Notes under the pieces: model-generated | What the model was told of the DNA's origin: nothing | What the model saw: the letters and a program-made list of their open reading frames with translations, nothing else | Databases searched by the model: none | Virus genome (UHGV): UHGV-0086138 | Direction: 5' to 3' (one strand) | DNA from: a virus | DNA: 41,245 nt | Shown: piece by piece, positions 36,401-37,423 of the stretch | Layout of the letters: each line of letters opens with the position of its first letter | Position numbering within the stretch: the stretch's first letter is position 1 | Program-made: the position numbers and the translations under genes

Positions 36401-36496
36401 GTATTGACAAGATCTATTTACATGATGCGTATGGATGAATTTGAAATAATAAGGATGGCATATCAAGAAAAGAAAATAGCGGATCTAATAAGTTAA
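33422..36496 (+). CDS. tailspike / tail fiber protein with C-terminal intramolecular chaperone (peptidase S74-like) domain
   Basis: 1024 aa; conserved particle-binding N-terminus; AT-rich central/distal part; C-terminal block SDVNYKDEFSDI...HFGVVAQQVKDA resembles S74 autoproteolytic chaperone domains. Confidence 0.8.
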   Translation: MTVSTEVDHNEYTGNGVTTSFPYTFRIFKKSDLVVQVSDLNGNVTELVLDTGYKVTGAGTYSGGEVVLPSPLAAGWRITIERVLDVVQETDLRNQGKFFPEVHEDAFDYLTMLIQRCFGWFRRALMKPSLLAKYYDAKQNKISNLADPSLEQDAVNNRSMRKYVDAAIAGVVGGFGWFIQYGAGAVYRTFQDKMRDTVSVKDYAAVGDGITDDTNSFILAPENAYVPPGVYLVDTLKVDVSKMTGEGMILSKTGHLLSLRNNISNTLVQRHLMEAFMGFGESQVFPNGEATSQGCAYANYNGKKLFILQTVVGSAEGSGNFNSKVTSAGDFITGIEYEIVSIGSTDFTTIGAAENNIGVRFTANGPGVGTGTAAALEKRRLVEYSFSDDGSVVQNTTYTAPILNNHQGISTIVIDDDLFIYTQMVTQPTYRGNDGGKGYSKLIWKGSSTSESDVITYQLFGYSGSGHPYQNYNSATPCVSSDGRYVVLVATDSTADDDAWYVFVYSRIHVESLDNSLEARPLYYFRIPHPQRGTDTHVIQDVASDGKYIYILRGYTHPFMLHIIQKFDYSGNILAEFSFEGARSLYGYKNLMDNPKYGTPHSFEPEGIDMYEGDLIILTMDNWDSGASIITYKGKNYSAFSTASGIAPDDPDGFRMWAITNKVSGGEYSNDKKYSDGVYSKRGKQIFLISQSRGVANELPLNSALTTRVNNSPLSSISSAFDVSFKLGENWILGGYSENTSEYKKAIQYASNGAFRVHDSRRESDNNKYWSIRGGYDVTPQIQEVVEFRCRGTVENGAGWNAYGSNDYRLPNRFRMFPGGSFGGTQVLVEIANPVNDNPYFAPTGQIGTVNNGTTTAYWNNIYSKNAVTVVSDVNYKDEFSDIPTELIEAVGSVKFQMWKMKDEILRKGSEHARYHFGVVAQQVKDAITKAGLDWKKYGLITYEETSVLVRENESGDFYPIDIESCPIPVNEFGIIKLIEGADEIKEDKHGNLVLTRSIYMMRMDEFEIIRMAYQEKKIADLIS

Positions 36497-37423
36497 TGCT
36501 ATAATAAATAATATGTAATGGCCGCGCATTACGGCCATTATTATAATTATATCACTGTGCTGCTGTGCTGCTGTGCTGCTGTGCTGCTGTGCTGCTGTGC
36601 TGCTGTGCTGCTGTGCTGCTGTGCTGCTGTGCTGCTGTGCTGCTGTGCCTGCAAATCTTTTTTCATACATAAGCATTATTCTCTTGGCTTCTTCCCCATT
36701 GTTTCTTAGCCACATTTTTCCTTCAATGCATCTTGCTTTGGCTGGTACGCCACTTAGCGCACTGAATTTTTTACATGATTTTGTAACTACAGCACCAAGT
36801 GAAACGATGGAGCATGCACCAATTCTTACATTTTTTAGTATTGCTGTGCGCTGTCCGATCCAGCAATATGGTTCGATTATAATAGGTGATGTTGCAGCGT
36901 TGACTACTTTTCGCGTGGTGAGTTCGATAATTTGGTGGCCATCTGCAGGTCTAATAGATATTTCTTGGCTCATAAGGCAGTGATCACCAATAATAATGCC
37001 GTTACAAGGATTGCCAGGGTTTATTCCAGTAGTCCAATTACTTGTTGAGGTAACTGATACACCTTCTCCAACCACTACAAAATCCCATTTGCACCATATA
37101 TGCATAGTTACATTATTTAGTTGTGAGTTATTTCCGATGTAACAAAGGCTTTCACCGTGAGTTATTACAATTCTCGATCCCCTGCATTTTACATTTTTTC
37201 CAATAAATATTTTACTGTCTTTTGCCTTTTCTCCAAAAGCAATTATCAGTTTTTCCGGAAGCTTACCGTCAGCAACATATATTGTATTGCTTTCATCTCC
37301 TTTAACACCAATATCACTTGGCTTGAAAACGGTATATAAAGTTGAATCGATATTAAAGTTTTCAACACAATATTTTATGTCATTTATAAATAGTCGTGCT
37401 TTTTTTAGTGCATTAGATTCCAT
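36485..37423 (-). CDS. hexapeptide-repeat (left-handed beta-helix) acetyltransferase, candidate O-antigen/polysaccharide O-acetyltransferase
   Basis: Hexapeptide-like [LIV]-G-x pattern in central region; convergent with and overlapping 3' end of tailspike; AT-rich; C-terminal region encoded by 8-bp tandem repeat. Confidence 0.7.
   Translation of the reverse strand: MESNALKKARLFINDIKYCVENFNIDSTLYTVFKPSDIGVKGDESNTIYVADGKLPEKLIIAFGEKAKDSKIFIGKNVKCRGSRIVITHGESLCYIGNNSQLNNVTMHIWCKWDFVVVGEGVSVTSTSNWTTGINPGNPCNGIIIGDHCLMSQEISIRPADGHQIIELTTRKVVNAATSPIIIEPYCWIGQRTAILKNVRIGACSIVSLGAVVTKSCKKFSALSGVPAKARCIEGKMWLRNNGEEAKRIMLMYEKRFAGTAAQQHSSTAAQQHSSTAAQQHSSTAAQQHSDIIIIMAVMRGHYILFIIALTY
36518..36545. terminator. 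hairpin terminator after tailspike, overlapping extreme 3' end of convergent acetyltransferase ORF
   Basis: ATGGCCG-N7-CGGCCAT then T/A-rich tract. Confidence 0.5.
36556..36648. repeat. octanucleotide tandem repeat (TGTGCTGC) about 11.6 copies
   Basis: perfect 8-bp period read directly; lies in 3' region of the acetyltransferase gene. Confidence 0.9.

Follow-up and report, generated by a model that had tools for sequence, protein, structure and literature searches.

Does a perfect 8-nt tandem array near the 3' end of a prophage O-acetyltransferase gene form a contingency locus, and which surface polysaccharide would the enzyme modify? The gene lies in the window, the whole stretch of 41,245 nt analysed here (UHGV virus genome UHGV-0086138). 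Contingency loci driven by repeats are characteristic of Haemophilus, Neisseria and Campylobacter; they are very rare in E. coli, where neuO is the textbook exception. The locus is probably, by somewhat better than an even chance, a second and independently evolved mobile contingency locus of the neuO type, with a slippage-variable array and the K18_K22 capsule as the most likely substrate. The chief competing explanation takes the array for a neutral hypermutable microsatellite, a selfish or accidental expansion in a dispensable C-terminus with no effect on acetylation or fitness. This explanation is a real possibility, though we lean against it.

Features of the acetyltransferase locus and its neighbourhood, in positions of the window
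Feature	Position	Strand	Basis
Tailspike, 1024 aa, with C-terminal S74 intramolecular chaperone	33422..36496	+	Pfam PF13884
TAG stop, window's frame, within tailspike 3' end	36485..36487	-	ORF list and sequence
NeuO-like left-handed beta-helix O-acetyltransferase ORF, 312 aa	36485..37423	-	ORF list, PDB and fold matches
Intrinsic-terminator-like hairpin and U-rich tail, where the tailspike and acetyltransferase genes converge	36506..36540 (stem 36540..36516)	-	Terminator scan
TAA stop, third frame, protein ..STVI*	36547..36549	-	Sequence; used in MLI121, P0064
TGA stop, one shifted frame, protein ..TAAQ*	36552..36554	-	Sequence; used in MLI114, AST205, E100341
8-nt tandem array, 11.75 units	36555..36648	-	TRF, repeat search, sequence reading
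Sigma-70-like promoter candidate (TTGCCT, 17-nt spacer, TATAGT) upstream of acetyltransferase ATG	37495..37523	-	Consensus scan only
Lysis cassette: two holins, GH19 endolysin, DUF2514 protein	37583..39401	+	Pfam; PGAP annotation of identical loci

The best sequence match of the protein in the PDB was NeuO (3jqy, E=2.5e-18, phmmer), and NeuO and OatWY were the top Foldseek matches of its predicted model. His163 and Trp188 align to the catalytic His147 and Trp171 of NeuO (PMC3046976) and are invariant in 43 family members. The conserved core comprises residues 1-261 (nt 36641-37423) and is complete before the array. AF2 pLDDT exceeded 90 over residues 1-260 and fell to about 45-53 in the tail, and the (AAQQHSST)n tail is predicted to be disordered. 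Homologs from other genera are 255-292 aa long and end 5-25 residues past an RFA motif; their tails at the place of the array are short and unconserved, which together with the completeness of the core before it fits a neutral array. The assignment as an acetyltransferase follows from the PDB sequence and fold matches and not from Pfam Hexapep, the score of which was under the gathering threshold (21.4 vs 27). To this extent the hexapeptide acetyltransferase of the earlier note is corrected. Its further description as a surface-polysaccharide O-acetyltransferase next to a receptor-binding prophage tailspike was borne out by PDB, fold and locus annotation.

The array unit is GCAGCACA on the sense strand and CTGTGCTG on the + strand. 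TRF gave a period of 8, 11.8 copies, 100% matches and zero indels at 36555-36648, and a separate repeat search returned the identical register; the same array had been reported before as about 11.6 copies at 36556-36648, one base off. The perfect 94 nt lie late in the minus-strand ORF 36485-37423 and are translated there as (AAQQHSST)n, with DIIIIMAVMRGHYILFIIALTY coming next. The octamer was found in four or more copies at only 34 loci in 185,579 species (one genome each, 596 Gb), and none of these 34 was in a representative genome of Enterobacteriaceae. Such perfect periodicity, at so few loci across these species, shows that the array is not a product of chance. Its absence from representative genomes of other Enterobacteriaceae argues against a neutral origin, as does the general rarity of long perfect non-triplet arrays within genes of E. 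coli. The two gammaproteobacterial octamer loci inspected, in Aeromonas caviae (L019) and Shewanella (L017), were unrelated and apparently intergenic. Unusual hairpins that could account for instability or function were also sought in the array, and both strands folded no better than shuffles (z = 0.06, 0.43), as would be expected of a neutral repeat. The + strand ORFs running through the array (e.g. 36518..36709, with VLLCCCAA repeats) were rejected as antisense artefacts: they lack both homologs and signals and overlap a well-supported gene.

Because the array follows the whole catalytic core, frameshifts in it cannot truncate the enzyme as in classical phase variation. A change in copy number alters instead the length of the tail, the C-terminal ending and the position of the stop relative to the terminator. 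The core (~261 aa) is retained in all three frames and no frame removes it, so the anatomy does not imply an ON/OFF effect. The shifting of the frame described in the earlier note is confirmed, natural alleles using all three exit frames. The early stops that the note had read in the other two frames, TGA 36554..36552 and TAA 36549..36547, are both used by natural alleles, and both lie 5' of the terminator hairpin. Its read-through of the window's frame across the hairpin into the tailspike 3' end is likewise seen in ORF 36485..37423, which is translated through the hairpin and shares 12 nt with the tailspike ORF 33422..36496. The TAG at 36485..36487 lies ~19 nt past the U-rich tail of the terminator, and the stop of this frame would be absent from the terminated transcript. 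Folding of the hairpin gave z-scores of -3.7 on one strand and -3.85 on the other, and its stem is kept across flank variants with one loop substitution.

Natural alleles often read through (the window, SW070919, PAR, P0001, P0062, P0065-P0068), and the read-through frame is clearly not under strong counter-selection. The stops 3' of the array lack conservation; in the PAR/EC0026B-type flank, CGA stands in place of TGA, and read-through occurs in two frames out of three. The 22-residue hydrophobic tail of the window's frame comes from reading an AT-rich bidirectional terminator region in antisense. The substitutions of flank variants in this region are few and every one changes the peptide, so there is no sign of selection on it. 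A membrane-anchor role for the tail was judged unsupported, since its composition follows antisense AT-rich DNA and the peptide is unconserved. The occurrence of natural alleles in every frame, long read-through ones included, the loss of a downstream stop in one flank variant and the lack of any sign of selection on the tail all favour a neutral microsatellite. Against it, the locked short alleles P0058, P0060 and P0063 all use the only frame in which, for their flank type, translation ends before the terminator. The locked 267-aa alleles end ..STAK* at the same stop, TAA 36549..36547.

Unit counts in public E. coli genomes were about 2, 12, 17, 23, 43, 44, 51 and 53, and the arrays measured 94, 134, 183, 342, 350, 406 and 422 nt in alleles with coding sequence at least 99.4% identical. 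The minimum was about 2 units and the maximum 52.75, the copy numbers of long arrays being taken from long-read assemblies and possibly one unit off. The polymorphism was seen across 7 complete genomes and 2 viral contigs and also among many proteins from draft genomes. The cluster at 90% identity comprises 125 distinct E. coli proteins, and their tails cover every frame. MLI121 and MLI114 have 0 differences over 7,000 flanking nt, yet differ by 8 nt (one unit) in the array; AST205 and E100341 have flanks with 1 difference in 7,000 nt and arrays 288 nt apart. Repeat counts across related prophages, the check named in the earlier note, are thus variable (~2 to 52.75 units), down to a single-unit pair with no flank difference. 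Because counts run from ~2 to 53, tails occur in all frames and a one-unit pair has identical flanks, it is well supported that the hypervariability, a between-strain polymorphism in otherwise near-identical strains, is driven by slippage. The persistence of 43-53 perfect units in 4 of the 7 complete-genome alleles speaks against neutrality. The most frequent allele, P0058 (267 aa, on 71 contigs), has a short interrupted tract, so the array is dispensable; such a collapse in the commonest allele is what a neutral repeat would show. IMG/VR yielded only two loci. The locus had no match in 50,697 phage genomes by megablast, and the exact flanks of the array had none in JGI metagenome contigs.

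The closest known system is neuO of phage CUS-3, the only E. coli phage homolog found (tblastn). Both genes encode a left-handed beta-helix O-acetyltransferase with the catalytic His and Trp kept, both are prophage cargo directly behind a tailspike gene (in CUS-3 the tailspike gene is followed by neuO and then int), and both contain a perfect non-triplet repeat in the coding sequence giving a polar periodic peptide in all three frames. The hosts bear a group 2 capsule in both cases. The copy range is also similar, 3-53 for neuO in 64 complete genomes (PMC13001214) and ~2-53 here. That the well-known E. coli repeat gene should encode a homologous enzyme at the same place in another prophage makes coincidence seem unlikely, contrary to a neutral origin. 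The repeat-encoded peptide of NeuO tunes its activity although it is not required for it (PMC3046976), a further point against neutrality.

The present locus would then be a variant of the neuO kind, differing in unit, position and phage. The neuO unit is 7 nt (AAGACTC, encoding RLKTQDS) and the present one 8 nt (GCAGCACA, encoding AAQQHSST). The neuO array begins 2 nt after the start codon, and this 5' repeat gives full-length enzyme only at counts divisible by three; the present array is 3', after residue ~261. neuO is co-directional with its tailspike gene, whereas the present gene is convergent. CUS-3 is a P22-like Lederbergvirus and its host capsule is K1 (polysialic acid), while the present prophage is epsilon15-like, at guaA|yfgI, in hosts with the ribitol phosphate type K18_K22. 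Identity is ~22% to NeuO by Foldseek and 36% over 31% of the query to neuO by tblastn, and Arg137, the proposed oxyanion residue of NeuO, corresponds to Gln153.

Among other relatives, OatWY of N. meningitidis W-135/Y (PDB 2wlc-2wlg) gave the best superposition (TM 0.83 target-normalised, rmsd 2.7 A). It is likewise a capsule-specific left-handed beta-helix enzyme, but it is chromosomal, within the capsule locus, ~20% identical and active on substrates containing sialic acid; oatWY is not known to contain a tandem repeat. An uncharacterised family from TagF-like (teichoic-acid-like) capsule loci of Aeromonas, Pantoea and other genera (P0002-P0046) is 33-70% identical over the full length and has the same ~265-aa architecture ending ..GKxWLRN..EAK..Y..RFA. 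Its members differ in lying within kps-like loci by the polymerase gene and in not being prophage-borne, and none of 23 non-E. coli sequences read, of 45 full-length matches, had a tandem-repeat tail. O-antigen acetylases of serotype-converting phages, such as Sf6 Oac, are also prophage-encoded, acetylate the polysaccharide receptor of their own phage and have their gene near the tailspike. They are integral-membrane acyltransferase-3 enzymes acting outside the cytoplasm, and their genes are not known to be repeat-controlled. The present protein, also phage-encoded near a tailspike, has a predicted soluble left-handed beta-helix fold and gave no match to an AT3 domain in Pfam or NCBIfam.

The distribution of the gene points to its probable substrate. 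It was present in 11 of 5,426 complete genomes, equal to 7 independent strains, in a set that leaves out the K18/K22 reference assemblies GCA_977946865, GCA_977946875 and GCA_977947955. The kps genes of carriers were found by a chimeric query (acetyltransferase core plus kpsD), and the locus was then read from EC0026B. All 11 carrier genomes have kpsD, against a background of 31%, and their kps region 2 is mutually at least 99.9% identical. Compared with their counterparts in the CC131 (K100) locus, the three region-2 proteins of the carriers were 82.0, 98.9 and 97.1% identical. Between K18_K22 and K100 the kTYPr table lists 82.13, 98.908 and 97.098 (PMC13171598), and by this agreement the locus of the carriers is K18_K22. 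Per-genome K types for the carriers were not found in the kTYPr supplement. The K18_K22 kps locus encodes a TagF-like polymerase and a CDP-ribitol synthase and is not K1. K18_K22 region 2 (at least 99% identity) occurred in 19 of the 5,426 genomes, representing 15 strains, and all 11 carriers were among those 19 (P=2.4e-19, assuming independent strains, while the carriers are possibly partly clonal). The gene was found in no genome of this set without K18_K22 region 2 and in none of 113 K100-type genomes.

K18 is the acetylated form of K22; their loci are identical and without an acetyltransferase, the gene for which is probably outside the locus; which enzyme tells K18 from K22 was posed as an open problem in 2026 (PMC13171606). 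The prophage gene, lying outside kps and confined to strains with the K18_K22 locus, is a candidate for this acetyltransferase. The Aeromonas and Pantoea homologs sit within kpsMT/kpsCS capsule loci, beside TagF-like polymerases. The O-antigen, the acetylation of which the earlier note proposed to assay, gives way to a group 2 capsule as the likelier substrate, on the strength of the K18_K22 locus in carriers and of homologs in kps-like loci; the serotype conversion that the note envisaged, or superinfection exclusion, is plausible by analogy with NeuO/CUS-3 (PMC13001214). Another TagF-like kps type, that nearest the Pantoea polymerase (L054), was considered for the carriers and rejected, as 0 of 49 genomes with it or a relative carry the gene. 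A 252-aa gene in the L054-type locus proved unrelated to the acetyltransferase.

In the favoured explanation, the enzyme would be cytoplasmic and would most likely act on the teichoic-acid-like (ribosyl-ribitol-phosphate) group 2 capsule. If this substrate is right, it would convert K22 to K18 and modify the receptor of its own phage. Array units would be gained and lost by slipped-strand mispairing far faster than the flanks acquire point mutations; 8-nt loops escape mismatch repair. Since the array follows a complete catalytic core, each unit change alters tail length and ending, adding or removing 8/3 residues of the disordered polar (AAQQHSST)n tail and rotating the frame among three endings. 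Two of these (..Q* and ..VI*) stop 7-12 nt before the intrinsic terminator and the third passes through it. Frames stopping before the terminator would be expected to give normal enzyme and the read-through frame less, via a tmRNA-tagged non-stop product or the hydrophobic extension. As with NeuO, activity may in addition be tuned by the length of the tail. Anatomy, homology, hypervariability and the exclusive co-occurrence with the K18_K22 locus are observations; the substrate and any effect of the repeat on acetylation are inferred.

A bolder combination, in which the gene is the determinant of K18 vs K22 (perhaps K18a vs K18ab) and the 3' array a true switch of an undescribed type, is considered unlikely. 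Here the stop would be moved from just upstream of the terminator (ON) to ~19 nt beyond it (OFF), and the OFF frame would leave a terminated mRNA without a stop codon, its product being tmRNA-tagged and degraded. Alternatively, coupled translation through the hairpin in the OFF frame might drive antisense read-through into the tailspike gene. The outcome would be stochastic K22 to K18 form variation caused by a prophage, altering the receptor of that phage's own teichoic-acid-type tailspike.

It is improbable that the enzyme acts on another substrate, an O-antigen unit or other glycan, with its K18_K22 association reflecting tailspike host range or shared ancestry of the carriers. Epsilon15-like phages classically use and modify O-antigen, which would fit such a substrate. 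The same acetyltransferase was found with three tailspike variants, and the K18_K22 polymerase bears only a remote resemblance to those beside the homologs in other genera; both points lean the same way. Relatedness of carriers is suggested by a frameshifted yfgH that several have in common. Yet the carriers are diverse in genome size (4.7-5.3 Mb), include an EAEC background and contain intact vs remnant prophages, and AST19, a K18_K22 strain with frameshifted yfgH, has an empty attachment site. The nearest characterised and structural relatives are moreover capsule enzymes, family members lie within kps-like loci, and K18 is acetylated by an enzyme not found in its locus (PMC13171606), all of which argue for the capsule.

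An assembly or sequencing artefact, by which the array or its copy differences would come from assembler collapse or expansion, is scarcely credible: arrays above 300 nt do occur only in long-read complete genomes, and short-read drafts break at the array into partial proteins (e.g. P0061, P0071), but the same array and flanks recur in IMG/VR contigs and across independent projects that span several countries and sample sources, a short-read contig at 99x coverage encodes a protein identical to that of the window, length differences are exact multiples of 8 nt and five EC0026B assemblies agree mutually.

If the preferred neuO-type explanation is true, a temperate phage modifying its own capsular receptor by such a locus would be a solution evolved repeatedly, and the array would provide a natural system for probing the effects of a 3'-terminal, non-truncating repeat. 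It would also offer a concrete candidate for the K18/K22 acetyltransferase, with which genotypic K typing could split K18 from K22. Acetylation may then vary inside a clone, and with it antigenicity and sensitivity to phage.

The host element is an epsilon15-like prophage; its integration site lies between guaA and yfgI, and it ends before yfgI (39620-40159). The acetyltransferase gene is reverse-oriented, directly after the tailspike gene and before the lysis cassette. The receptor-binding part of the tailspike is homologous to the gene 12 neck appendage of Bacillus phage GA1 (25% identity, 78% of query, E=7e-50, tblastn, phages), which supports the capsule link. The promoter candidate upstream of the acetyltransferase is weak, because such sites are no more numerous in the region than the shuffle expectation; together with the terminator it hints at the layout of an independent, reverse-oriented moron.

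A NeuO-family acetyltransferase gene is carried by the prophage beside the tailspike gene, contains a hypervariable 8-nt array with three alternative C-terminal endings, and was found exclusively together with the K18_K22 capsule locus. Tandem Repeats Finder reported a period-8 array of 11.8 copies with 100% matches and no indels, and a second repeat search of the window gave the same register. The unit is CTGTGCTG on the plus strand and GCAGCACA on the minus (coding) strand. As three units make 24 nt, the ORF reads the array in three frames by turns and encodes the periodic octapeptide (AAQQHSST)n. 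In the window allele, the frame past the array continues as DIIIIMAVMRGHYILFIIALTY through the hairpin to a TAG situated 12 nt within the convergent tailspike ORF. The earlier note had described the array and its exit frames in this way, and Tandem Repeats Finder, the ORF listing and the sequence bore it out. In one representative genome each of 185,579 species, runs of at least four copies of the octamer were found at only 34 loci, none of them in Enterobacteriaceae. Because such runs are so rare, the array cannot be a product of chance. It can be regarded with high confidence as real and hypermutable.

Features of the window
Feature	Coordinates	Strand	Basis or remark
Acetyltransferase ORF holding the array	36485..37423	minus	312 aa; ORF listing
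Octamer array	36555-36648		Tandem Repeats Finder
Stop of the window allele, TAG	36487..36485	minus	
Stop of second frame, TGA	36554..36552	minus	sequence
Stop of third frame, TAA	36549..36547	minus	sequence
Terminator-like hairpin, directly downstream of array and followed by a U-rich tail	36540..36516	minus	terminator scan, fold test
Sigma-70-like site upstream of acetyltransferase	37523..37495	minus	weak match
Tailspike ORF	33422..36496		
Tailspike receptor-binding part, residues ~150-870	33872-36031		
tRNA-Arg (anticodon TCT)	13146-13222	minus	
24-bp tandem repeat with flanking 18- and 12-bp repeats	5345-5524		
Replication-initiator-like ORF	5040-5903		
yfgH	40175-40693		

Among 5,426 complete E. 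coli genomes, megablast detected the locus (36300-37600) in 11, with identities of at least 99.4% and matches of differing length; the array of each was measured between fixed flanks. Five laboratory derivatives of EC0026B share a short interrupted tract, GCTGTGCTGCTGT-CTGCTGTGC, which gives a 267-aa protein ending in RFAGTADSSTAK and a stop. Comparison of repeat counts in related prophages, proposed in the earlier note as a check, revealed differing counts, including a one-unit pair: over 7,000 flanking nt MLI121 and MLI114 are identical, yet the MLI114 array is exactly one unit longer, so that the frame changes. AST205 and E100341 show one difference over 7,000 flanking nt and arrays 36 units apart. 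The array thus changes far faster than point substitution and by whole units, a signature of slipped-strand mispairing. Clustering at 90% identity groups 125 distinct E. coli proteins; the members listed range from about 2 to 17 units, and every possible ending occurs. Counts above about 20 units come from long-read assemblies only; short-read drafts break there and leave partial proteins (for example the E. coli members P0061 and P0071). In IMG/VR contig UViG_2585427789_000028 (10942-11191, reverse-complement orientation), TTATCACA splits the array into perfect blocks of about 14 and 16.5 units. The interruption resembles the left flank junction of the array and the ORF stops there (after ..STAAL). 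This split array may be a product of unequal recombination that would partly stabilise the tract.

Array length and protein ending in individual genomes
Genome	Array (nt)	Ending
Window	94	read-through tail
AST205	134	..Q, stop
PAR	183	different left flank, long read-through
MLI121	342	..VI, stop
MLI114	350	..Q, stop
SW070919	406	read-through tail
E100341	422	..Q, stop

Pfam gave only a sub-threshold Hexapep match for the acetyltransferase. The best sequence match in PDB was NeuO (3jqy, E=2.5e-18), followed by other hexapeptide acetyltransferases including meningococcal OatWY. NeuO is the K1 polysialic acid O-acetyltransferase of prophage CUS-3, with catalytic His147 and Trp171 (PMC3046976), which align to His163 and Trp188, both invariant in 43 family members; the position of NeuO Arg137 is occupied by Gln153 in the window protein. 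AlphaFold, run with the family alignment, modelled residues 1-260 with pLDDT mostly above 90 and those from 261 on with about 45-53. Foldseek against PDB also placed NeuO and OatWY at the top (OatWY TM 0.83, rmsd 2.7 A). In other genera the homologs have 255-292 aa and end 5-25 unconserved residues past a conserved ..GKxWLRN..EAK..Y..RFA motif. Because model confidence drops at 261 and the homologs end near the RFA motif, the array was added in the E. coli lineage, within a dispensable C-terminal tail behind a complete enzyme.

The homologs of Aeromonas caviae and Pantoea anthophila are situated within kpsMT/kpsCS-type capsule loci and adjoin a TagF-like (Glyphos_transf) polymerase of about 1,260 aa; several further homologs have this polymerase family on the same contig. 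A GDSL/SGNH-hydrolase gene overlaps the homolog and directly follows it in the Aeromonas locus (L049, 8776-9474) and in a metagenome contig (L052, 8788-9444), where a second copy of the homolog lies behind it. These may represent an acetyltransferase/esterase pair in capsule loci.

A chimeric query of the acetyltransferase core and 600 nt of kpsD showed that each of the 11 carrier genomes, representing 7 independent strains, also has kpsD, against 31% of all genomes. Region 2 of the EC0026B kps locus comprises three genes, for a 1,107-aa TagF-like polymerase, a bifunctional cytidylyltransferase/SDR protein (CDP-ribitol-synthase type) and a 378-aa protein, with no acetyltransferase among them. 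Megablast at 99% identity or more found this region in just 19 of 5,426 genomes, and every one of the 11 carrier records is among these. An 88%-identical region 2 is present in 113 more genomes, none of which has the acetyltransferase, and this group includes strain Ecol_448, which we take to be ST131. Between the two locus types the region-2 proteins are 82.0, 98.9 and 97.1% identical; the kTYPr supplement gives 82.13, 98.908 and 97.098% for K18_K22 versus K100, and the K100 type is common in CC131 (PMC13171598). The carriers' kps locus is thus assigned to K18_K22, since the identities match the kTYPr figures and the 88% group fits K100/CC131. Assuming strain independence, chance would place all seven carriers among the K18_K22 genomes with P = 2.4e-19; this value is weakened by clonality and by the host range of the phage, but the restriction of the gene to the K18_K22 type stands. 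K18 is the acetylated version of K22; the two have identical loci without an acetyltransferase, whose gene probably lies elsewhere (PMC13171606). No paper in the literature searched names the K18-acetylating gene or this octamer. The acetyltransferase can be proposed, with moderate to good confidence, as the K18 determinant, and K18 versus K22, explicitly an open question, becomes directly testable.

In its receptor-binding part, the tailspike shows homology to the gene 12 product of Bacillus phage GA1, a neck appendage precursor of the phi29 gp12 family (E=7e-50, 25% identity, 78% coverage). Appendages of the phi29 gp12 type degrade wall teichoic acid. For the tailspike of an E. coli prophage this relationship is surprising, but it fits a ribitol-phosphate capsule as receptor. 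Residues 519-611 of the tailspike show a weak Phage_RBD_prop match; a faint match to the same family was observed in a 301-aa protein just upstream of the acetyltransferase homolog in the Pantoea anthophila capsule locus (L051, 7091-7996).

The enzyme would acetylate the K22 backbone to K18 and thereby modify the phage receptor; on K1, acetylation by NeuO lowers infection by a lytic K1 phage (PMC13001214). Gain or loss of units would modulate the enzyme without truncating it, and tail length may tune activity by analogy with NeuO, whose heptads do so (PMC3046976). The frame sets the stop either 7-12 nt ahead of the terminator hairpin or about 19 nt past its U-rich tail. In the far-stop frame the terminated transcript would lack a stop codon, so tmRNA tagging and a low enzyme level are expected; alternatively, the terminator may be read through and the hydrophobic extension made. 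A neutral microsatellite, tolerated because this end of the gene is dispensable, is the main rival explanation. Three observations count against a designed switch: the PAR/EC0026B-type flank has lost one downstream stop, alleles that read through are common, and a locked short tract is the most frequent allele. However, that locked tract uses the sole frame of its flank type with a stop ahead of the terminator. Confidence in a phenotypic effect of the repeat is low to moderate.

In the phage collection, neuO of CUS-3 was the only E. coli phage homolog. It likewise directly follows the tailspike gene, and its 5' end contains 19 AAGACTC units. The present locus resembles neuO in homology, prophage and tailspike position and polymorphic non-triplet repeat, but differs in its 8-nt unit, 3' position, epsilon15-like phage and K18_K22 capsule. 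As two defining features of neuO, a 5' repeat truncating the enzyme and the K1 substrate, are absent, it is considered an independently evolved variant and not neuO. It would give E. coli a second contingency locus of the SSR type, of interest to capsule and phase-variation specialists.

The MLI121 annotation describes this prophage as an epsilon15-like temperate podovirus integrated between guaA and yfgI, with a gp10 capsid staple, a Bbp16-type cement protein and a T7 gp14-like core protein. The acetyltransferase gene is reverse-oriented, with the tailspike on one side and the lysis cassette on the other. The stem of the terminator-like hairpin behind its array is kept across flank variants. 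The gene outlives prophage decay: in AST205 the prophage is reduced to a remnant in which a replication protein P fragment is followed by the genes for tailspike, acetyltransferase and lysis. AST19 shares its submitter and its K18_K22 locus with AST205; its guaA-yfgI junction is empty and it lacks the acetyltransferase gene. In SW070919, an IS3 element is situated directly upstream of a shortened (825-aa) tailspike gene. Beside the attachment site, yfgH is annotated as frameshifted in AST205, AST19, E100341 and EC0026B and is intact in MLI121, MLI114, PAR and SW070919; its state could distinguish two or more host backgrounds among the strains with the K18_K22 locus. A tRNA-Arg gene for the rare AGA codon lies between the terminase and portal regions. 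The replication-initiator-like gene (a DnaT-like ssDNA-binding domain protein in the MLI121 annotation) contains a perfect 24-bp tandem repeat, CCCAAAAACGGGATGTTGAATGAT, of 4.6 copies, flanked by 18- and 12-bp repeats and encoding PKNGMLND x4. These repeats resemble origin iterons contained within an initiator gene, on the pattern of lambda O.
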